Assembly (NCBI RefSeq): GCF_041886205.1
Contig: NZ_CP169029.1
Strand: one strand, 5' to 3'
DNA from: Escherichia coli
GTDB taxonomy: Bacteria; Pseudomonadota; Gammaproteobacteria; Enterobacterales; Enterobacteriaceae
DNA: 64,000 nt
Below the pieces are notes generated by a model. The model saw nothing but the letters and a program-made list of their open reading frames with translations, was not told the DNA's origin and did not search any database. A program made the translations under genes and the position numbers. How positions within the stretch are numbered: position 1 is the stretch's first letter; every line of letters begins with the position of its first letter. Shown here one piece after another: positions 8,305 through 46,642 of this stretch.

Positions 8305-9360
8305 ATGAAAAAGAGCACTCTGGCATTAGTGGTGATGGGCATTGTGGCATCTGCATCCGTACAGGCCGCAGAAATATATAACAAAGACGGTAATAAACTG
8401 GATGTCTATGGCAAAGTTAAAGCCATGCATTATATGAGTGATAACGACAGTAAAGATGGCGACCAGAGTTATATCCGTTTTGGTTTTAAAGGCGAAACAC
8501 AAATTAACGATCAACTGACTGGTTATGGTCGTTGGGAAGCAGAGTTTGCCGGTAATAAAGCAGAGAGTGATACTGCACAGCAAAAAACGCGTCTCGCTTT
8601 TGCCGGGTTGAAATATAAAGATTTGGGTTCTTTCGACTATGGCCGTAACCTGGGCGCGTTGTATGACGTGGAAGCCTGGACCGATATGTTCCCGGAATTT
8701 GGTGGCGACTCCTCGGCGCAGACCGACAACTTTATGACCAAACGCGCCAGCGGTCTGGCGACGTATCGGAACACCGACTTCTTCGGCGTTATCGATGGCC
8801 TGAACTTAACCCTGCAATATCAAGGGAAAAACGAAAACCGCGACGTTAAAAAGCAAAACGGCGATGGCTTCGGCACGTCATTGACATATGACTTTGGCGG
8901 CAGCGATTTCGCCATTAGTGGGGCCTATACCAACTCAGATCGCACCAACGAGCAGAACCTGCAAAGCCGTGGCACAGGCAAGCGTGCAGAAGCATGGGCT
9001 ACAGGTCTGAAATACGATGCCAATAATATTTATCTGGCAACTTTTTATTCTGAAACACGCAAAATGACGCCAATAACTGGCGGCTTTGCCAATAAGACAC
9101 AGAACTTTGAAGCGGTCGCTCAATACCAGTTTGACTTTGGTCTGCGTCCATCGCTGGGTTATGTCTTATCGAAAGGGAAAGATATTGAAGGTATCGGTGA
9201 TGAAGATCTGGTCAATTATATCGATGTCGGGGCTACATATTATTTCAACAAAAATATGTCAGCGTTTGTTGATTATAAAATCAACCAACTGGATAGCGAT
9301 AACAAATTGAATATTAATAATGATGATATTGTCGCGGTTGGCATGACCTATCAGTTTTAA
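8305..9360 (+). CDS. phoE: Phosphate-starvation-inducible outer membrane porin PhoE
   Basis: [21 protein letters not shown] signal peptide followed by [16 protein letters not shown]... and C-terminal ...GMTYQF (terminal Phe typical of OMP beta-barrels); 351 aa. Confidence 0.95.
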
Positions 9361-13426: not shown

Positions 13427-14041
13427 TTATCCTTCGATAAAAGCCATCCCTGTAAATGTCCGTCTCGGGTTGCCACGTTCAATCTGGTGATGGAACATTC
13501 GCCGCTGCGATTTCAGCACCGCGCTATTTTCCTGTTGCTGCTGCTCCAGCTTCCAGGCAATCAGCAATCGTGCCAGCCGCTTGTTAGCATGCTGACTACG
13601 CTCTGACTGAACCTTCACGCTAATACCGGATGCCAAATGCGTGGCGCGTACCGCCGAGTCGGTTTTATTGACATGTTGACCGCCCGGCCCCGACGAACGC
13701 AACGTCTCATAACGGATTGCATCCGATTGTTCCTGCTCATCAGCGGTAAAACGCCCAATGCCCAGAAACCAGTTTTTGCGCCCATGATGAGGCCGATACG
13801 GACTCGGACAAATCCACTGAATAGTGCCGCACCAACTTTCGCTTAATGCCCATGCGTTATCGCCATCCAGAGAAACCAGCGCTGAACGCAGCGTGTCAGA
13901 GTAGCGGCCCGTTTCGGTTTCCAGCACCGTTACCGCGACGTCTTGTCGGGCAGCTTCTTTAATTAGCCTGTCCAGCGCCTTTTTCACTGCGAGACAACAT
14001 TCTTCCGGCCCCTGCGCTGAGGAGAGTTGAAGCAAGATCAT
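13427..14041 (-). CDS. prfH: Peptide chain release factor homologue PrfH (RF-H), apparently full length
   Basis: Product from [16 protein letters not shown]... with the GGQ motif ([16 protein letters not shown]) of class-I release factors, about 204 aa; start ATG overlaps the upstream rtcB stop (ATGA at 14038-14041). Confidence 0.85.
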
Positions 14042-15204
14042 CCTTTTTTCCCTCCACTGTTTTTGAGCGTTAGCACCGGACGCAGCCGCGCGACAGGAAT
14101 AATTAAACCGGCCTGCACCAGACATTGCACCACGCTTTCAGCCGATTTATAGGCTTGTGGCGCTTCTTCAAAGATGAGTTGTTTATCGCGACAAATTACC
14201 CGACTGCCAAGTTCAGTACGCGAGAGTTGCGTCGCTGTGTATTTCGCTGCCAGACGCCCTTTACACTCGGTGCGCCCCCATTTACGCCCAGCCCCATGCG
14301 CCAGCGAGTGGAGCGTTTTTTCATTCGCAACAGGCTGTACAAGCCAGGAGTAATCACCGCGTGAACCGGGAATAATCACCAGACCGTTGTCATCCGGCGT
14401 GGCACCTTTACGATGCAACCAGCCCTGTTGATCGCCGATTTGACAGGCGCTAACAAAGTTATGCGCCACATCCAGAACCGGACTTCCGATAGCCTTAACT
14501 TGTTGCATTATGCGTAAAGCGATCAGCTGGCGATTAATACGCGCAAACGCCAGCGCATCGTCATGTTCCGCAATATACCGTAGCGTGTCGTCACTGCCTT
14601 CAGGCAAACCATGATGCGAAAACGAGGCAATATGCCGCTGTAAAATAGACTGCCCCAACCCCCGCGAGCCGCTATGAACCAACAGTTGCAGATGTTGTGC
14701 ATCCAGACCTGCCAGTGCAAACTGTTCAGCGTTGATGATTTGATCAACTTGTTGCAGTTCAGCGAAATGATTGCCGCCACCGATAGAGCCAAGCGAGCTG
14801 CGCCACGGATGCTGTGCAAATGCTGACGGCAGGTTTTCCTCCAGCCAGCTTTCTTCAGCAACGTCATCCAGATCTGATAATCGCTTTTCAAACTTATCGG
14901 CGTTGTATTTGCGAGCGAGAATATCTGTTTGCCATAGCGCCATGCCGCAGCCGATATCATTGCCGACCAGTGCCGGATAAAAACGGCCTGCGGAGAAGAA
15001 CGCTGCGCCAATCGGATAGCCGCGTCCGGGATGTAAATCTGGCATCCCCACTACGCGCTGCATGTTGGGTAAATTTGCCGTGGTGTGTAATTGTAGGATC
15101 GCTAAACTCTCGATCCACAGGTCATCAGATGCGATGGTAAATACCGCATCGGATAAGGGACGAATATAATTGCCCATATACCATTCCGTAAATAGACTCG
15201 TCAT
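14038..15204 (-). CDS. rtcB: RtcB-family RNA ligase paralogue (RtcB2-type; ykfJ position), apparently intact
   Basis: 388 aa with RtcB hallmarks (...[10 protein letters not shown]..., ...[13 protein letters not shown]..., ...[12 protein letters not shown]...); translationally coupled to prfH. Confidence 0.85.
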
Positions 15205-15422: not shown

Positions 15423-15875
15423 TTAATGTTGCGGTTTATAACGCATATAAAAATTAATAAACCACGCTCCCCGGCATTCAACGCGCTGCTGCTTAACTGT
15501 CTGAAAACCATAACGTTCAAAAAAGGGTTTTGCGGTTATGCTGGCGTCCACCGTAAGTTCGGATTCAGACTTAATCAAAGGTTTTAACAAAGCGCTGGCA
15601 ACCCCACGGCGGGTGTATTCAGGGTCAACAAATAACATATCGATATAATGTTCAATGCGGGAAATAAAACCAACCGGTTGTGCATTAATGACCGCAACCC
15701 ACACTTGTGATTTCGCGAGTTTCTCCTTCCAGCAAGATTCGTCAATCTGCGCCCAGGCGGCAATTTGTTGTGGAGAATAGTGCTGACTGGCGGTCATCGT
15801 AACCGCTCTAATAAAAATAGCGCATAGTTGCTGAAAATCGCCAGGCTGATAGTTTCTTATTTGTATGTTATTCAT
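15423..15875 (-). CDS. yafP: GNAT-family N-acetyltransferase YafP
   Basis: 150 aa [25 protein letters not shown]...; start overlaps the dinB stop by 4 bp. Confidence 0.85.
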
Positions 15876-16927
15876 AATCCCAGCACCAGTTGTCTTTCCA
15901 TTTGAGGGTCAAGCAACGTCACATGCAGCCCCACCAGTCGCACACCGCGCCCACCGCGGCGTTCATCCCAGGTTTTACGCGCGGTGGCGATTAAGTCAGC
16001 TTTATTCAGCCGCGGCCAGACATGCTCCTGGGTGGTTTGCTGAAAATCGTCGAACTTTAATTTCACCCCCTGGCGAGCAATCAGTAAATCAGGTTTTACC
16101 TTTGCCAGACGGCGTTCAAGTTCCGGATACAGCCGCTCGATAATCGCTTCACATTCAGACCAGTGATGAATATCTTCCGCCATCGTGCGTTCCACGCCGA
16201 CGGATTTTCGCAACCGTTCGCTGTTAACGTCGCGCTCGTCAATCCCCTGACTACGCTCCCACAAAATGCGGCCAAATTTGCCAAAGCGTTTAAGCAGCAT
16301 CACCAGATCACACTTTTGTACATCACCGCAGGTCCGCAGCCCCATCGCTTCCAGCTTCGCCGCTGAGACTTTGCCAACACCGGGAATTTTTGCCAGCGGT
16401 AAGGTTTGCAGAAATGCCGGAACTTCCGCCGGAGTAATCACAAACTGGCCGTTGGGTTTATTCATGTCGGAGGCGATTTTGGCGAGAAACTTTACTGGTG
16501 CCACGCCCGCAGACGCCGTCAGTTGTAGCTCGTTGAAAATCGTCTGGCGGATTTCCTGGGCGATGAGGGTCGCAGAACCGTGGCAATGGACGCTGTCGGT
16601 GACATCGAGATAGGCTTCATCCAGTGACAACGGTTCAATGCGCGAGGTGTAGCGCGAGAAGATTTCACGGATATGATTTGAGGCTTCTTTGTAGGCGTCA
16701 AAGCGCCCCGGAAGCAAGGTGAGATATGGGCATAATTTGAGCGCCATCCCTGTCGGCATAGCGCTACGTACGCCAAATTTACGCGCGGGGTAATTGGCGG
16801 TGCTGATCACCCCCCGACGTTCACGGCTGCCGCCAATAGCAATAGGGATATCGCGCAGGGCGGGATTGTCGCGCATCTCCACTGCGGCGAAAAAGCAGTC
16901 CATATCCACATGAATGATTTTACGCAT
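15872..16927 (-). CDS. dinB: DNA polymerase IV (Y-family translesion polymerase)
   Basis: 351 aa [58 protein letters not shown]... Confidence 0.95.
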
Positions 16928-16941
16928 TGCTCACCTCTCAA

Positions 16942-16961
16942 CACTGGTAAAGTATACAGTG
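16942..16961 (-). promoter_or_regulatory. LexA (SOS) box of the dinB promoter
   Basis: Reverse strand reads CACTGTATACTTTACCAGTG (CTGT-N8-ACAG consensus) about 15-35 bp upstream of the dinB start codon. Confidence 0.75.
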
Positions 16962-16997
16962 ATTTCAGGGTTTGAGAAATGCGTAAAGATTCAGCAT

Positions 16998-17690
16998 TTA
17001 ACGCGTTCGCTGCGAAAGCACCTGCTGCTTATCCAGCTTTTGCACCAGCGGCTGCACCACCTTATCCCCATGCTGACCAAAGTATTGATACAGCGTATCG
17101 GACGCACTTTTGGTCAGCACCATAATCTCAATGCGTCGGTTGCCCGCGCTTTGCGGATTTTTGGAATCCAGCAGCATCTGGTCCGCCATCGCGCTCACCT
17201 GCATCACTTTATCTTCCGGCATTCCTGCCTCTTCCAGCACCCGACGAGCCGAAAGCGCGCGGTCACCCGAAAGGTTCCAGTTGTTGTAGATATTATTTTT
17301 GTAGGCCATCGCATCGGTATGCCCGGTAATAATAATTTTGTTATCGAGCGAGTCGAAAACTGGCGCGAGCTCCACCAGCAGCGTTTTAAAGAACGGCATA
17401 ATCTGCGCGCTACCGCGTTCGAACATATTGCGATTCTGGTCGTCTTTAATCAGCACGCGTAATCCCTGCGGGACAATCTCCATCTCCAGATTCGCTTCCA
17501 TATGCGCATCACGGGCAATGGTGTTGATACTGGTTGCCAGCTCGCCAAGCTCGGTGGCGGATTTCATCTTCAGCAGCGCCGTTTTCTCGTTGACGTCGCG
17601 CGCTTTTTTCTCCGTCTCTTCCGGCACCGCCACGGTGGCAGGTTTTGGCGGATGAGACGGGCTGATTTTATTTAACGGCGACAACCCGCC
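16998..17690 (-). pseudogene. lafU: lafU remnant: MotB-like lateral-flagellar motor protein lacking its N-terminal membrane segment (Flag-2 remnant)
   Basis: Translation carries the MotB/OmpA-like C-terminal domain (...NWNLSGDRALSARRVLEEAGMP...); the 5' part of the track ORF is antisense to lfhA and not credible coding sequence. Confidence 0.7.
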
Positions 17691-17759
17691 GCCATTGAAA
17701 ATCGACTGCCCGTGCAGCGCGGCGATAATGCTTTCACGCTCGGATTTACTGACGCTGTT

Positions 17760-19467
17760 GACAATCAACTTTATCGTCGTCACCAAAGGGGCCGAGCGTA
17801 TTTCCGAGGTTTCTGCCCGCTTTACCCTGGACGCGATGCCCGGTAAGCAGATGGCGATTGATGCCGATCTTAACGCCGGATTGATCAACCAGGCGCAGGC
17901 GCAATCCCGGCGTAAAGATGTTGCCAGCGAGGCCGATTTCTACGGCGCGATGGACGGGGCATCGAAGTTTGTGCGCGGAGACGCCATCGCCGGGATGATG
18001 ATTCTGGCGATCAACCTGATCGGCGGCGTCTGTATCGGCATCTTCAAATACAACCTGAGCGCCGACGCCGCCTTCCAGCAATACGTGCTGATGACCATCG
18101 GCGACGGCCTGGTGGCGCAGATCCCTTCCCTGCTGCTCTCCACCGCGGCGGCGATTATTGTCACCCGCGTCAGCGACAACGGCGATATTGCCCATGACGT
18201 GCGCCACCAGCTGCTGGCAAGCCCGTCGGTGCTCTACACCGCTACCGGGATTATGTTTGTGCTGGCGGTGGTGCCGGGGATGCCGCACCTGCCGTTTTTG
18301 CTGTTCAGCGCCCTGCTTGGCTTTACCGGCTGGCGGATGAGCAAGCGCCCACAGGCGGCGGAGGCGGAAGAGAAAAGCCTCGAAACGCTGACCCGCACCA
18401 TCACTGAAACCAGTGAGCAACAGGTCAGTTGGGAGACGATACCGCTGATCGAGCCCATCAGCTTAAGCCTGGGCTACAAGCTGGTAGCGCTGGTGGATAA
18501 AGCCCAGGGCAACCCGCTCACCCAGCGAATTCGCGGCGTGCGGCAGGTGATTTCTGACGGTAACGGCGTGCTGCTGCCTGAGATCCGCATTCGGGAAAAC
18601 TTCCGCCTCAAGCCCAGCCAGTACGCTATTTTCATCAACGGCATTAAGGCTGATGAAGCGGATATTCCGGCGGATAAACTGATGGCCCTGCCCTCCAGCG
18701 AAACCTACGGCGAGATTGACGGCGTGCTGGGGAACGACCCGGCGTACGGAATGCCGGTCACCTGGATCCAGCCCGCACAGAAAGCGAAGGCGCTGAATAT
18801 GGGGTATCAGGTGATCGACAGCGCCAGCGTGATTGCCACGCATGTGAATAAGATTGTGCGTAGCTATATTCCTGATTTATTTAACTATGACGATATTACG
18901 CAGTTGCATAACCGTTTGTCGTCGATGGCACCGCGCCTGGCGGAAGATTTAAGCGCGGCGCTGAATTACAGCCAGTTGCTGAAAGTGTACCGCGCGCTGC
19001 TGACCGAAGGCGTTTCCCTGCGCGATATCGTCACCATTGCCACCGTGCTGGTCGCCAGTAGCGCGGTGACCAAAGATCATATTCTGCTGGCAGCTGATGT
19101 GCGCCTGGCGCTGCGGCGAAGCATTACCCATCCGTTCGTTCGCAAGCAGGAGCTGACGGTGTATACGCTGAATAATGAGCTGGAAAATCTGCTGACCAAC
19201 GTGGTGAATCAGGCGCAACAGGGCGGGAAAGTGATGCTCGACAGCGTGCCGGTCGATCCGAATATGCTCAACCAGTTCCAGAGTACGATGCCGCAGGTAA
19301 AAGAGCAGATGAAAGCGGCGGGGAAAGATCCGGTGCTGCTGGTGCCGCCTCAGCTGCGCCCTTTGCTGGCGCGTTATGCAAGGTTGTTTGCGCCGGGGCT
19401 GCATGTGCTGTCGTATAACGAAGTGCCGGACGAGCTGGAGTTGAAGATAATGGGGGCGTTGATGTAA
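17760..19467 (+). pseudogene. lfhA: lfhA remnant: FlhA-family flagellar export protein lacking its N-terminal ~130 aa and promoter (Flag-2 remnant)
   Basis: Credible FlhA homology begins ...GAERISEVSARFTLDAMPGKQMAIDADLNAGLI... and runs to the stop at 19467; no FlhA N-terminus and no start context. Confidence 0.7.
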
Positions 19468-19479
19468 GTATCCGGCATT

Positions 19480-19784
<305 letters not shown>

Positions 19785-19790
<6 letters not shown>

Positions 19791-20282
19791 AATGATACGC
19801 TCGCCAGCATTTATATCCGTTACGTCCCCCGCCCAATCGATGGGATATAACCCTCGCGCGACATCGCGATGGAACGTTGAGAATGGCCAATCACTCACTT
19901 GCTTTACCCAACCATGCTTTACTGGATTTATATAAATATAATCAACATGATGCCTATAATCTTTGGTATTGCGGATGGCGTGCTCCCAAAAACGTGGTTG
20001 CCAGATATTTTTCAATCCACAAGCATGGGTAAATTGCTTTTTAATTTCCCGCCAGCGCGAGGAAAAATCATCATCGCCTTCAGGTAATGTCCAGATACAG
20101 TGCATATGCTCTGGCAAAACGACCCAGGCGTTGATTTCAAAAGGCCTGTCTCGCTTAACTTTAATAATGGCGTGACGGAGCATCTGGTACTGGGTGGTCA
20201 AGAGTTGGCTTCGACGATTGCGTAAATTCACCGTGAAAAACCAGGTTCCCCCCTTGATGTAATAACGACGATATTCAGACAT
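19785..20282 (-). CDS. rayT: REP-associated tyrosine transposase (RayT/TnpA-REP)
   Basis: 165 aa MSEYRRYYIKGGTWFFTVNLRNRR...; IS200/IS605-like HUH fold (...HMHCIW...); flanked on both sides by REP elements. Confidence 0.85.
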
Positions 20283-20372
20283 GGCGACTCCTTTTTCTCA
20301 ACGGTAAGAAGAAAAGGAAAGGTCGGTAATGAGGTGATGGAATAACAGGAAAGCGGCTCGCAAAAACGCACA

Positions 20373-21216
<844 letters not shown>

Positions 21217-21507
21217 AAACCGGCTGAATGAAGGTGAGAATTTTAAAAGACCGGAGGAGTAAACGGGATTATTAATTGCTTATTTGCATATTACTATTGA
21301 GGTTTCATAATCTTAGGAAATAAATGATACATGCGCTTTTCGGACTATTGAAAACTGCCCCTGTGCTAAATTTGTAAACCCAGCGCCGACAGGCTTGCGT
21401 AAAACTCTTTTGGTGATAATGTGAGCCTTCCAAATCCAGACTATTCCGATTTGGGATCCATTTTGCCGTCCTGGCGTGTGTAACCGTTTTATCAAGGAAT
21501 AAGCAGT

Positions 21508-22248
21508 ATGCGTAAAATCGCATTAATTCTTGCGATGTTGTTGATCCCGTGCGTTTCGTTTGCCGGTTTGCTGGGCAGCAGTAGCTCGACCACGCCAGTG
21601 AGCAAAGAGTATAAGCAGCAGTTGATGGGATCCCCTGTCTACATCCAGATCTTCAAGGAAGAACGTACGCTCGATCTCTACGTCAAAATGGGCGAGCAAT
21701 ATCAACTGCTCGACAGCTATAAAATCTGTAAATATTCCGGCGGCTTAGGGCCAAAACAGCGTCAGGGCGATTTCAAAAGCCCGGAAGGGTTTTATAGCGT
21801 CCAGCGTAATCAGTTAAAACCAGACAGCCGTTACTACAAAGCGATTAATATTGGTTTCCCCAATGCCTATGACCGTGCGCATGGTTATGAAGGGAAATAC
21901 CTGATGATCCACGGCGATTGTGTTTCCATCGGCTGCTACGCAATGACCAATCAGGGTATTGATGAGATCTTCCAGTTCGTTACTGGTGCGCTGGTGTTTG
22001 GTCAGCCGAGCGTGCAAGTGAGTATTTACCCGTTCCGCATGACCGACGCCAATATGAAGCGCCATAAATATTCCAACTTTAAGGACTTCTGGGAGCAACT
22101 GAAGCCGGGTTACGACTACTTTGAGCAAACCCGTAAGCCACCGACCGTTTCTGTGGTCAATGGTCGTTACGTGGTCAGCAAGCCGTTAAGCCACGAAGTT
22201 GTGCAGCCACAACTGGCATCAAACTACACGCTCCCCGAGGCAAAATAA
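21508..22248 (+). CDS. yafK: L,D-transpeptidase-fold periplasmic protein YafK
   Basis: 246 aa with signal peptide [19 protein letters not shown] and YkuD-like core (...[15 protein letters not shown]...). Confidence 0.85.
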
Positions 22249-43729: not shown

Positions 43730-44637
43730 ATGGAAATGGACGGAAAGAATCGGGCAGCATCCTCTTATCTGAGTCCGGGAAATCCCCCGGCAGATAAAGA
43801 GCAGAATGATCCGCTGGCACAGGTTTTCCATAATGCCTGCTCTTACAATTTTTTTGCGATGGCGGGCTCGTTGCACCGCCTGGCAAAGGGTGAAAGGGGA
43901 CGCCAGAATTATCCCTGCGTGACGATCCGGCACAGGAAACCCTGCGTTTCAGCGCCGATGCCAGCCTTGCCTTCCCGTGCAGTGATATCAGTGCACTGAA
44001 ACGGGATACGTCAGGGGCATTCAGGATGACCACCACCTTTATGGGGTTACAGGGGAGCCAGTCGCCTCTCCCCGGTTATTACCTCGATCACCTGGCCTGG
44101 AAAGCGGTACATGAACAAAGTCCGGTAGGTGATTTTCTGGATATGTTCAGCCACCGCCTGACCCAGTTTGTCTGGCATATCTGGCGTAAGTACCGCTATC
44201 ACATCAGTTTTCGTAACGGCGGTGTGGATGCGTTCTCGCAGCGCATGTACTCCCTTGTCGGGCTGGGCCACCGCCAGCTTCGCGATAAGCTGGCGATTAA
44301 TCACAGCAAAATGCTGGCGTATTCCGGGATCCTGGCAAATCCGGGATGATCCCCGGAAATAATCTGTGGCCTGGTGTCCCACTGCTTTGATTTGTCAGAA
44401 GTGACGCTGCAAAACTGGCAACGTCGCAAGGTGGATATTGAACCGGATCAGCAAAATAGTCTGGGGAGCTATTCTCTTAAAAATGGCGAAAAACTGGCGG
44501 GAAGATCGGTACTGGGCAACTTTGTTCTGGGTACACGAGTGCCCGATCTCAGCGGAAAATTCCAGCTCAGTATTACCAGCCTGACCCGAAAACAGTTCCT
44601 CTCTTTCTGCCGTCTGGCGAAAACTTCCTGCCACTGA
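43730..44637 (+). pseudogene. tssG: tssG (baseplate component), at least one frameshift
   Basis: ORFs 43730..43999, 44026..44349 and 44374..44637 are consecutive pieces in different frames; position after tssF. Confidence 0.6.
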
Positions 44638-44840
44638 CGATGTTCGTGTCCTTCATCCTGCGCGATCAGCTTGCCTGGGACTTACATCTGGGGCTGGCGC
44701 CGGAGCAGGTGGGCGCAATGCGCCTGGGCGATAACAAAAGTGCGCTGCTGGGCTGGACCAGCTTCCTCGGCACACCGGAAGAACGACCCTCAGTCACCAT
44801 CAGGGTACGGTCGTAAATTATGATAATCACGGAGCAGAAT

Positions 44841-46121
44841 ATGCCGGAAGAGAAACTACAGACGCTTTCATTGCAGGTCATTAACGGCAGTGAGCTGGAA
44901 AGCGGACGGGCGGCGCGCTGTCTGTTCACACAGCAGGGAAATGTCGGCCATGGCCCCGAATGCCACTGGTCGGTACAGGATCGTCAGCAGAGCATTCCGG
45001 CCCAGGCTTTTACCGTTATCCTGCACGATGGCACATTTTGTCTGCGCCCGCAGACGGCACAACTGTGGCTGAATCAGGCAAAAGTCACAGCAACATCAGA
45101 CCTAATACAGTTGCGCCAGGGCGATGAGATCCAGATCGGACGGCTGATGGTGAGGGTTCATCTGAACCGGGGAGATATTCCCCATTACGATGAGGAAATG
45201 GCCACTCCCGAAACCATCGTTACCAATCGCGATATGCTCACGGATACCCTGCTATCAACGGAGGGTACGCCACACTATCCGGGAATGACTCACCGGCACC
45301 AACTTGCAGACACCGTGGTAAACGGTTTTTCTGCCGATCCACTCCAGGCACTTCAGTCCGAAAGCCTGATTACCACGGGCGATCCGCTTTCAGGCATTGC
45401 GGCTGTCCGGCCATCGGCACCGCTGTCCGATCCGGCAAGTAATGGGGGGATCAATACTCCGTTTATGGATCTGCCGCCCATTTATGCCAGCCCCGGCGAT
45501 CGTAATGACGACGTCTCTGCGGCAGAAATGGCGCAACGCCACCTTGCGGTCACCCCCTTACTGCGCGGTCTTGGCGGCTCGCTTACCATGAGCAATTCCG
45601 ACGATGCGGATGATTTTCTGGAGGAGGCCGGACGAACGTTACAGGCCGCAATAAAAGGTCTGCTCGATTTGCAGCAGCAGCGTAACAGCCTCTCAGACAA
45701 ACATTTGCGCCCGCTGGAAGATAACCCGCTGCGCCTGAACATGGATTACGCCACCGCGCTCGACGTAATGTTTGCCGAAGGTAAAAGCCCGGTACATCTG
45801 GCGGCTCCCGCCGCCGTCAGTGAAAGCCTGCGCAATGTCCGCCACCACGAAGAAGCTAACCGGGCAGCGATTGTGGAGTCGCTTCGTGTCCTGCTGGATG
45901 CTTTCTCACCACAAAATCTGCTGCGCCGCTTTGTGCAGTACCGCCGCAGCCATGAACTGCGCCAGCCGCTGGATGATGCCGGAGCATGGCAAATGTACAG
46001 CCATTATTACGAAGAACTGGCCTCCGATCGCCAGCAGGGGTTTGAGATGCTGTTTAACGAGGTCTACGCCCAGGTCTATGACCGGGTGCTTCGTGAAAAA
46101 CAGCGGGAGCCGGAAGCATGA
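44841..46121 (+). CDS. tagH: T6SS FHA-domain protein TagH/Fha, reading frame intact
   Basis: Continuous ~427-aa ORF; N-terminal FHA-like segment (...LSLQVINGSELESGRAARCLF...LRPQTAQLWLNQAKVTA...GDEIQIGRLMVRV); position between tssG and tssJ; stop overlaps the tssJ start. Confidence 0.7.
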   Translation: MPEEKLQTLSLQVINGSELESGRAARCLFTQQGNVGHGPECHWSVQDRQQSIPAQAFTVILHDGTFCLRPQTAQLWLNQAKVTATSDLIQLRQGDEIQIGRLMVRVHLNRGDIPHYDEEMATPETIVTNRDMLTDTLLSTEGTPHYPGMTHRHQLADTVVNGFSADPLQALQSESLITTGDPLSGIAAVRPSAPLSDPASNGGINTPFMDLPPIYASPGDRNDDVSAAEMAQRHLAVTPLLRGLGGSLTMSNSDDADDFLEEAGRTLQAAIKGLLDLQQQRNSLSDKHLRPLEDNPLRLNMDYATALDVMFAEGKSPVHLAAPAAVSESLRNVRHHEEANRAAIVESLRVLLDAFSPQNLLRRFVQYRRSHELRQPLDDAGAWQMYSHYYEELASDRQQGFEMLFNEVYAQVYDRVLREKQREPEA

Positions 46122-46642
46122 ACAGGAAGGCGTTTCTGGCCTGCGTGCTGATGTGCGTCATATTAACCGGCTGCGAAACGGCGAAAAAAATCAGTGAGGT
46201 GATCAAAAACCCGGATATCCAGGTCGGGAGCCTGAAGGAGCAACCTTCGGAAATAACCGTCACCCTGCTGACCGAACCGGACACGCATACCAATGCGGAA
46301 GGTGAATCAGCCGCCGTGGATGTGCAACTGGTGTACCTGACTGACGACTCAAAATTGCTGGCAGCCGACTATGACCAGATAGCCAGTACGCCGCTACCGG
46401 ATGTGCTGGGTAAAAACTATATCGACCACCAGGATTTCAACCTGTTGCCGGACACCATCAAAACCCTGCCGCCGGTAAAGCTGGATGAGAAAACGCAGTT
46501 TATTGGTGTCGTGGCCGATTTCTCCGATGACCAGGCCACTGAATGGGAACAAATCGAGACGGTGGAAGGAACCGGCCACCATTACCGCCTGCTGGTGCAT
46601 GTACGTCAAAGCAGCATCGAAATGAAAAAAGAGGATGAATAA
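46118..46642 (+). CDS. tssJ: T6SS outer-membrane lipoprotein TssJ, reading frame intact
   Basis: 174 aa; lipoprotein signal MNRKAFLACVLMCVILTGC (lipobox LTGC); ATGA overlap with tagH; followed immediately by tssK. Confidence 0.8.
   Translation: MNRKAFLACVLMCVILTGCETAKKISEVIKNPDIQVGSLKEQPSEITVTLLTEPDTHTNAEGESAAVDVQLVYLTDDSKLLAADYDQIASTPLPDVLGKNYIDHQDFNLLPDTIKTLPPVKLDEKTQFIGVVADFSDDQATEWEQIETVEGTGHHYRLLVHVRQSSIEMKKEDE

Follow-up and report, generated by a model that had tools for sequence, protein, structure and literature searches.

The interval 16998-19467 of the window, a stretch of 64,000 nucleotides from Escherichia coli, is almost certainly the Flag-2 (lateral flagella) deletion scar that is already known in this species, in which the 5'-truncated remnants of lafU (minus strand) and lfhA (plus strand) abut. 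The scar was published by Ren et al. in 2005, according to the accounts of that work given in PMC6993521 and PMC3032704, and the K-12 pair lfhA (fhiA, b0229) and lafU (mbhA, b0230) is the scar of Ren, Beatson, Parkhill & Pallen 2005 (J Bacteriol 187:1430). As PMC6993521 cites that study, the deletion lies inside the lfhA and lafU reading frames and has direct repeats at its ends. The identification itself adds nothing new: this is a textbook scar that K-12 annotations already include and that three quarters of E. coli genomes share. What deserves attention is that the two stumps are much less decayed than expected of a simple old pseudogene. The complete account, comprising a known scar, inert stumps, and a single origin kept polymorphic by recombination, is regarded as fairly probable when its parts are taken jointly.

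An intact E. coli Flag-2 locus, that of LCP17S3_I1 (contig L004), served as the alignment reference. The window was first described from its letters and open reading frames, and this sequence-only reading proposed the internal deletion of a large flagellar cluster with only its two terminal genes left, a proposal confirmed by the collinearity of both arms with the ends of the intact cluster. Window positions 16900-17766 align to L004 8286-9152, the 3' part of lafU (intact gene, 8384-9307), at 96.4% identity, and positions 17755-19600 align to L004 44497-46349, the 3' part of lfhA (intact gene, 44116-46209), at 94.4% identity. With both endpoints mapped by this alignment, 35,356 bp containing about 40 flagellar genes are missing from the window relative to L004. 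The intact ~36-kb cluster has an outward-facing operon at each end, lafU being the last gene of one and lfhA of the other, and both promoters and native translation starts have been lost with the deleted interior. The coordinates of the features are collected in Table 1.

Table 1. Features of the Flag-2 scar in the window
Feature	Position	Strand	Description
lafU' remnant	16998..17766	-	3' 769 nt of the lateral-flagellar MotB homologue; codons ~52-307 and stop
Read-through ORF	16998..17888	-	296 aa, TTG start; lafU' plus 41 codons antisense to lfhA'
RefSeq 'lafU' call	16998-17783	-	GTG start, 261 aa, MTTIKL/IVNSVSK...; shorter form of the read-through ORF
Read-through ORF	17695..19467	+	590 aa, TTG start; lfhA' plus 23 codons antisense to lafU'; frame checked against intact lfhA
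Imperfect direct repeat at breakpoint	17755..17766		CTGTTGACAATC (lafU end) and CTGATGATCATC (lfhA end), 9/12 matching
Deletion junction	17764..17766		ATC, the sole bases exactly common to both endpoints in the intact cluster
lfhA' remnant	17764..19467	+	codons 131-697 and stop (last 567 codons) of the lateral-flagellar FlhA homologue

The lafU' remnant has lost 155 nt from its 5' end, equivalent to the first ~52 codons, which removes the N-terminal cytoplasmic segment, the membrane helix (aa ~34-54 of intact LafU), and the MotB_plug region; the description of a MotB-like minus-strand gene lacking its N-terminal membrane segment is therefore accurate, as the hydrophobic helix falls in the deleted part. 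The plug domain (PF13677) is found in 307-aa proteins and is missing from 261-aa ones. The membrane helix and plug of LafU are needed for stator function. The minus-strand product retains a Pfam OmpA domain (E=1.6e-14) and passes the NCBIfam LafU equivalog NF005273 with 474.6 bits against a cut-off of 383, the match spanning profile positions 42-297 of 297 and thus falling short of full length. On the plus strand, the estimated loss of the first ~130 aa of an FlhA-like gene proves exact (390 nt, or 130 codons): lfhA' begins where a transmembrane segment ends and retains the cytoplasmic loop, the last membrane helices, and the C-terminal cytoplasmic domain. Its product matches Pfam FHIPEP (PF00771) over profile positions 99-656 of 657 (E=3.7e-189) and NCBIfam FlhA (TIGR01398) over positions 118-677 of 678 (E=3.3e-177), with a TIGR01398 score of 590.8 bits, which lies under the equivalog cut-off of 772.1, whereas the intact E. 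coli lfhA product reaches 772.4 bits over positions 3-677. Because the profile matches miss the N-terminal part, both products are 5'-truncated members of their families, and neither matches as a full-length protein of another family. The RefSeq labels 'lafU' and 'FlhA, incomplete, missing N-terminus' are given to this pair in both a near-identical strain and K-12. The long ORFs said to cross the junction on both strands are present in the ORF list.

The junction was placed by a three-way alignment of the window with both endpoints of L004. The genes do abut, as described, but the meeting point given at roughly 17690-17760 lay to the left of the junction by between a few and ~70 nt, the junction itself being at 17764-17766. 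The two BLAST arms of the window on L004 overlap by 12 nt, and the short direct repeats that were to be sought at the endpoints amount to the 3-nt exact ATC inside the imperfect 12-mer. Both endpoints are located in short dyad-symmetric sequence and are conserved in the intact clusters of E. coli, Kluyvera, and Citrobacter, although the left-hand inverted repeat is not kept in Kluyvera. No recombinase gene is annotated in the intact cluster.

The junction core 24-mer (GACGCTGTTGACAATCAACTTTAT) occurs in the window, K-12, BL21, O157:H7, several other E. coli, and the E. albertii type strain. Among 5,426 complete E. coli genomes, 4,085 (about 75%, K-12 included) carry the 200-bp junction without gaps, and ~1,290 carry the two junction halves at separate places. 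Such recurrence of an ungapped junction excludes chance or an assembly artefact. Other junctions, such as LafE-LafU and similar fusions, occur rarely. The notion that the interval holds no scar, being two unrelated complete genes (OmpA-family and FHIPEP) arranged head to head or a product of misassembly, can draw on the RefSeq annotation of the 261-aa LafU' as an ordinary protein-coding gene; it is refuted by the alignment of both arms with the ends of the intact cluster at 94-96% identity, the presence of the junction in thousands of independent complete genomes and 21 metagenome contigs, and profile matches that begin only at ~42 (LafU) and ~118 (FlhA), and its probability is negligible.

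Neutral evolution would have been expected to bring dN/dS near 1 and an accumulation of stops and indels, a pattern that the stumps do not follow. Gaps and stops are absent from 9 distinct RefSeq scar alleles, the stumps keep an open frame in nearly every genome sampled, and across 2,465 nt none of 45 evenly sampled RefSeq scar genomes has a net indel. Scar alleles of E. coli compared with one another give dN/dS values of 0.033 (lfhA') and 0.053 (lafU'), with dS 0.13-0.20, matching the values of intact alleles and of dinB. Lesions nevertheless exist: four independent lfhA' frameshifts were found in 19 junction-bearing metagenome contigs (about one in five), one of them also in a RefSeq isolate, and lfhA' of the E. 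albertii type strain carries a 22-nt frameshifting deletion. One metagenome contig (L113; 0.78x coverage, many 1-nt gaps) was left out as error-laden. Sporadic private frameshifts of this kind indicate that lfhA' is dispensable. Additionally, singletons confined to scar alleles show a nonsynonymous to synonymous ratio of 21:55 against 16:137 for shared polymorphisms (p=0.002), an excess that alone means little because nonsynonymous changes are over-represented among young variants of any gene; for the youngest variants, the excess over dinB (23:28 versus 3:12) is not significant (p=0.13), the direct comparisons with dinB giving p=0.09-0.13 overall.

Scar and intact alleles of E. coli are interspersed, with zero fixed differences between the two classes; the nearest relatives of scar alleles are intact alleles at 0-2 differences, and all four combinations of scar state with a SNP 12 bp from the junction are present. 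In the comparison of ECC-1470 (scar) with O111:H8 (intact), the right arm shows 0 differences in 2,299 nt and the left arm 27 in 2,067 nt, which makes the pair a mosaic, and a clean de novo deletion in this B1 lineage was rejected since only one arm matches. Recent re-import of the intact cluster into E. coli was likewise rejected, since intact strains differ from one another in the interior (dS 0.08-0.17) as much as they do in the retained parts.

The same breakpoint was also located outside E. coli. A scan of genome contigs for LfhA' yielded three useful loci (E. albertii and two intact Citrobacter), the rest being generic FlhA homologues that swamped the scan because the pattern DAMPGKQM is universal; the other genera were reached through a LafU' protein search and inspection of contigs. 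E. albertii, Citrobacter amalonaticus, Kluyvera ascorbata, and two Atlantibacter species share the position of the junction to the exact nucleotide, and the flanks of the scar are genus-specific, differing at synonymous sites within 3-9 nt of the junction. Each of the five genera examined has both stumps with an open frame, and the scars of Citrobacter, Kluyvera, and Atlantibacter occupy the same chromosomal slot. Involvement of RayT/REP elements, considered on account of the rayT gene that adjoins lfhA' in E. coli, was rejected, as the scars of these three genera have no rayT there. Between the two Atlantibacter species, dN/dS is 0.026 for lfhA' and 0.083 for lafU', with dS saturated, and within species the scar and intact LafU are identical at 273 of 274 residues in A. 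hermannii and 276 of 277 in K. ascorbata. Shortened products occur in ~6% of the listed A. hermannii contigs, and this species has stumps together with intact loci. De Maayer et al. 2020 (PMC6993521) reported lfhA-lafU deletions in 531 of 4,028 strains across Enterobacterales, and by that account stumps are found mainly in taxa also holding intact loci.

With respect to expression, lafU was not detectably expressed in the laboratory according to the account in PMC8824477. The sole proteomic trace located is one 5-residue cross-linked peptide. Promoter-like sites around the junction number 4 compared with 1.8 +/- 1.3 in shuffled sequence, which is no significant excess, and terminators are likewise no more frequent than in shuffled sequence. 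LafU' has neither a signal nor a membrane segment with which to reach the peptidoglycan or periplasm. A product of LfhA', cut at the end of a membrane helix, could retain a sensible topology. Every genus has an in-frame GTG, ATG, or TTG close to the junction, with start codons that differ between genera. The absence of promoters and native starts, the lack of a periplasmic route for LafU', and the private frameshifts of lfhA' argue that the stumps are non-functional, which, with a single origin of the junction, is considered the probable state of affairs.

Under the explanation preferred here, one illegitimate deletion joined a point in lafU to a point in lfhA at the ATC within the 9/12 repeat, and this 35,356-bp removal took both promoters and both 5' ends. 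The junction probably arose once and persists beside the intact cluster as a presence/absence polymorphism, with homologous recombination continually swapping the flanking stump sequence with that of intact alleles, and this proposed exchange would be the reason that the stumps look as if they were under purifying selection. Given the shared breakpoint nucleotide, a single origin needs either a very old polymorphism spanning species or spread of the scar between genera, and by a rough estimate, keeping lesions so rare would require recombination with intact alleles tens of times above the values usually held to be typical of E. coli. In a rival reading, the same lafU-lfhA junction would be made repeatedly, species by species and on many allelic backgrounds, by recurrent site-specific deletion; each scar would then be young and its stumps would have had no time to decay. 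The same-nucleotide junction in at least five genera with flanks that diverge within a few nucleotides, the near-identity of scar and intact LafU within A. hermannii and K. ascorbata, the close intact relatives of E. coli scar alleles, the four scar-state/SNP combinations, the concentration of stumps in taxa with intact loci (as described in PMC6993521 and seen in A. hermannii), and the dyad-symmetric endpoints conserved across genera are all consistent with recurrence. It is nonetheless judged unlikely, as there is no evident mechanism: exact homology is 2-3 nt, longer chance repeats are expected across the 36-kb interval, the cluster is without an annotated recombinase gene, and Kluyvera does not share the left-hand inverted repeat. 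Moreover, the one-arm match of ECC-1470 and O111:H8 is better explained by recombination than by a clean de novo deletion, and the presence of the scar in whole deep E. coli lineages would require very many recent independent events.

Retention by selection, in which LfhA' and/or LafU' would still be made from fortuitous starts and be held open by their usefulness, is slightly less probable again. Such usefulness would accord with the dN/dS of 0.03-0.05 among E. coli scar alleles and the values between the two Atlantibacter species, with stumps that are open in five genera and free of net indels in the sampled RefSeq scar genomes, with an LfhA truncation at a membrane-helix end that could leave topology sensible, and with the in-frame start codons close to each junction. 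These starts vary between genera, however, and the promoters and native starts are deleted; LafU' has lost its means of access to peptidoglycan, lafU expression was undetectable by the PMC8824477 account, and the 5-residue peptide is the sole proteomic trace located. The frameshifts in metagenome contigs and in the E. albertii type strain, and the shortened A. hermannii products, also argue against it, and the occurrence of stumps mainly where intact loci circulate, as PMC6993521 describes, would be unexpected if they were useful in their own right. That at least one of the two holds, either a conserved, site-preferring recurrent deletion across Escherichia, Citrobacter, Kluyvera, and Atlantibacter or stumps held by selection for longer than the age of the species, is a tentative possibility that would explain the identical breakpoint, the species-specific flanks up to the junction, and the dN/dS of 0.03-0.08, which holds even where synonymous sites are saturated between species.

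This side result could bear on how bacterial pseudogenes and gene-cluster losses are read, as a 'dead' remnant looks constrained, draws on one allele pool together with the live gene of other strains, and is broken at an identical point in several genera. Should recombination with intact alleles be the cause, dN/dS and open frames would be unreliable signs of function wherever the presence and absence of a locus co-exist; should recurrent site-specific deletion be the cause, the loss of Flag-2 would be programmed or due to a hot spot, with a mechanism worth study.

Compared with the K-12 pair, the window holds the same two genes in the same orientation and in the same chromosomal slot between dinB and yafL, with dinB on one flank and the REP cluster/rayT and yafL on the other, the same junction 24-mer, and the same RefSeq annotated lengths of 786 nt and 1,719 nt. 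In K-12, lafU' is followed 70 bp downstream by the dinB promoter. Unlike K-12, the window allele is only ~95.7% identical over 2,465 nt, and its surroundings lack yafNO and dinJ-yafQ and include an intact rtcB-prfH. Relative to the intact Flag-2 loci of E. coli 042, W, O111, O26, and LCP17S3_I1, the stumps correspond to the 3' parts of the terminal genes, and only the intact loci possess the 35,356-bp interior with the basal body, hook, filament, export apparatus, sigma factor, and stator genes. The scar resembles the deletions described by De Maayer et al. 2020 (PMC6993521) in the en-bloc loss between the two terminal genes; that paper, in the part relevant here, reports their occurrence, whereas the same-nucleotide breakpoint and the open stumps of low dN/dS come from the present analysis.

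The feature is the deletion scar of the Flag-2 (lateral flagella) cluster, a correct and well-localized call of an already known lesion; PMC6993521, citing Ren et al. 2005, places it inside both reading frames and describes direct repeats at either end. The window derives from the E. coli chromosome; across 16900-19600 it matches strain wlxctx60 at 100% and K-12 at about 95% identity. In roughly one in four complete E. coli genomes, matching is confined to the right two thirds of the query; one such genome, LCP17S3_I1, holds an intact Flag-2 cluster in the same chromosomal slot (locus L004), where about 40 flagellar genes separate lafU from lfhA. By alignment, the left arm (window 16900-17766) corresponds to L004 8286-9152 at 96.4% identity and the right arm (17755-19600) to L004 44497-46349 at 94.4% identity; the arms are collinear with the ends of L004, of which 35,356 bp are absent from the window, bearing out the sequence-only reading of an internal deletion of a large flagellar cluster that left its two terminal genes. 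In a three-way alignment of the window with both L004 ends, the sole exactly common bases of the endpoints are ATC at 17764-17766, within an imperfect 12-mer (CTGTTGACAATC versus CTGATGATCATC, 9/12 matching). The MotB-like gene, described as lacking its N-terminal membrane segment, has lost the first 155 nt of lafU, corresponding to the hydrophobic helix (residues ~34-54) and the plug region, while the loss of ~130 residues estimated for the FlhA-like gene amounts to exactly 130 codons, the cut coinciding with the end of a hydrophobic segment. Since each gene closes an outward-facing operon in L004, the deletion took both promoters too; promoter-like matches near the junction were not above shuffled expectation in a promoter scan.

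Both remnant ORFs that had been described are present in the ORF list, and each reads, as had been claimed, past the end of its own-family homology into the antisense of the other gene. The minus-strand product contains an OmpA-type domain and matches the NCBIfam LafU equivalog with 474.6 bits (cut-off 383) over profile positions 42-297 of 297 only. The plus-strand product enters Pfam FHIPEP at profile position 99 and NCBIfam FlhA at 118 of 678, its 590.8 bits lying below the full-length cut-off of 772.1. Given this partial profile coverage, the two are members of the MotB/LafU and FlhA families truncated at their 5' ends; neither fragment was found to be a full-length protein of another family, the profile matches starting internally. 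RefSeq labels the minus-strand gene 'lafU' (a 261-aa CDS with a GTG start inside antisense lfhA) and the plus-strand gene 'FlhA, incomplete, missing N-terminus'.

Features of the scar, its neighborhood and the intact reference locus L004
Feature	Sequence	Coordinates	Strand	Remark
yafP	window	15423-15875		dinB runs straight into it
dinB	window	15872-16927	-	4-nt overlap with yafP
lafU'-bearing ORF	window	16998-17888	-	296 aa
lfhA'-bearing ORF	window	17695-19467	+	590 aa
rayT	window	19785-20282	-	flanked by REP cluster (19470-20420) directly downstream of lfhA'
lafU	L004	8384-9307	-	intact gene
lfhA/flhA	L004	44116-46209	+	intact gene

A junction-centered 200-bp query aligned over its full length, as a single gapless match, to 4,085 of 5,426 complete genomes, its two halves lying at separate places in about 1,290, and the 24-mer spanning the junction is identical in K-12, BL21, O157:H7 and others. 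Noncanonical fusions (LafE-LafU and similar) are present but rare in E. coli. Rare E. coli proteins (P0008, P0011 and P0014) have LafU fused at residues ~70-80 to different Flag-2 products, namely a hook-length-control-like protein and a second one; they represent alternative deletions, each removing only part of the cluster's interior, with different endpoints. In strain 1943 (NZ_CP023359.1), which has the two halves separate, the lfhA match falls 11 nt short of the query, and the feature is labeled FlhA without the flhA gene name borne by the other intact hits; decay of the intact cluster may be under way in this strain as well.

The neighborhood also varies between strains. The yafN-yafO toxin-antitoxin pair that lies between dinB and yafP in K-12 is absent from the window, and sampled strains are polymorphic for it; the window likewise lacks the dinJ-yafQ pair of K-12 between yafL and dpaA (21216-21508), whereas it holds intact an rtcB-like RNA ligase gene and prfH (13427-15204), of which K-12 keeps only fragments. 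The rayT slot is occupied by hicAB in ECC-1470 and O111:H8 and is empty in strain 98203. Synonymous diversity across 15872-19467 and homologous loci, dinB included, amounts to dS 0.12-0.25, which is high for E. coli and suggests a long-standing high-diversity or recombination-rich region.

The stumps do not have a decayed look. Nine distinct RefSeq scar alleles contain no gaps and no stops in either stump, and none of 45 scar genomes, taken at even intervals along the ranking, differs in net length over 2,465 nt, a check that registers net indels but not stop codons. Nei-Gojobori estimates of dN/dS among E. coli scar alleles are 0.033 for lfhA' (dS 0.20), 0.053 for lafU' (dS 0.13) and 0.020 for the control dinB (dS 0.15), against 0.025, 0.043 and 0.027, respectively, among intact alleles; by these values, the stumps are indistinguishable from intact alleles and from adjoining dinB. 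Samples are small throughout: 9 scar alleles from RefSeq, whose genomes are clonally redundant, some 19 from metagenomes, and, for each gene, 4 intact ones. Both variants of a SNP 12 bp away from the junction are found with the scar and with the intact locus.

Evidence for the dispensability of the stumps, with rare private frameshifts confined to lfhA', comes from 21 metagenome contigs recovered by an exact-pattern scan for the junction, one of which, of very low coverage, was discarded. In the remainder, lfhA' carries four different frameshifts (codons 72, 174, 204 and 212) and two in-frame deletions, although these could include assembly errors and a single one was cross-validated; lafU' in the same contigs shows neither type of lesion. 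About 27 kb of adjoining functional genes contain one frameshift, and the excess in lfhA' over its neighbors is suggestive, not significant. The codon-72 frameshift is shared by one RefSeq isolate and is therefore real, while that at codon 212 was not found in RefSeq. The E. albertii type strain (NBRC 107761, locus L023) has the same junction with a 22-nt frameshifting deletion in lfhA' at ~3934 (remnant nt 933). In that strain, the final 27 nt of lafU' did not align, and the annotated LafU (P0009, 252 aa) differs at its C-terminus. In scar alleles, N:S stands at 23:28 for the youngest, isolated private variants, versus 3:12 in dinB (p=0.13, a weak test) and a neutral expectation of about 2.6:1; constraint is at most partly relaxed. 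Expression of lafU is given as undetectable in the laboratory in PMC8824477, and one 5-residue peptide is the sole proteomic trace found.

The breakpoint is conserved beyond Escherichia coli. A protein search with the 261-aa LafU' returned, from several genera, products of two length classes: full-length ones with a MotB_plug domain, and truncated ones starting with M(T)TIKL or MKL joined to IVNSVS, i.e., antisense lfhA joined to LafU at the same residue. At the DNA level, C. amalonaticus, K. ascorbata, A. hermannii and another species of Atlantibacter share the junction to the nucleotide, reading ...CTGACGCTGTTGACAAT[C/T] followed by AACTT[T/C]ATCGT... (window 17764-17766; loci L122, L123, L125 and L127, together with L023 of E. 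albertii). These scars of Citrobacter, Kluyvera and Atlantibacter occupy the same chromosomal slot with both stumps open (LfhA' 562-569 aa, LafU' 277-286 aa). Scar and intact LafU agree at 273/274 residues in A. hermannii and 276/277 in K. ascorbata (~99.6%), and are 83% identical in C. amalonaticus.

Three explanations for the intact stumps were weighed. Recurrent site-preferring deletion, making the same junction anew, would account for the 'young' look of the stumps and for flanks that are genus-specific, with synonymous differences within a few bases of the junction; it is nevertheless unlikely, as no mechanism is visible: the two endpoints have only 2-3 exact bases in common, though each is conserved where E. 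coli, Kluyvera and Citrobacter keep the cluster intact, the cluster has no recombinase gene, and conservation does not extend to the left-hand dyad. The second alternative, selection acting on the stumps, would explain the low dN/dS between the two Atlantibacter species (0.026 for lfhA', 0.083 for lafU', approximate ratios at saturated synonymous sites), but it too is unlikely, conflicting with missing promoters and starts, nonconserved start codons, a LafU' without an export route, and the private frameshifts.

A single origin with recombination is preferred with moderate confidence. The junction would long have existed alongside the intact cluster, and homologous recombination would keep trading sequence between the stumps and intact alleles, the latter being those on which selection acts. 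Such an origin fits the interspersion of scar and intact alleles in E. coli, the absence of fixed differences among the compared alleles, the presence of both scar and intact forms within each species, and the mosaic formed by ECC-1470 (scar) and O111:H8 (intact), with 0/2,299 mismatches in the right arm and 27/2,067 in the left; the ECC-1470 lfhA' is identical to the intact O111:H8 gene over 1,704 nt. The scar lafU' alleles of BL21 and AH02 lie 1 and 2 nt from intact alleles. The deleted interior among intact strains (dS 0.08-0.17) is as diverse as the retained parts, and the intact cluster is therefore old in E. coli. Against a single origin stands its need for species-spanning polymorphism or spread between genera and, by a back-of-envelope estimate without a fitted model, for more recombination than typical to keep lesions so rare. 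Polymorphisms common to stumps and intact alleles were also observed on comparing window 16998-19467 with the K-12 locus (L001) and loci L005-L012 and L100-L120.

In this known scar, both the stumps and the exact breakpoint are conserved across genera. PMC6993521 reports stumps mainly in taxa that also have intact loci, with which the rare intact copies in A. hermannii agree.
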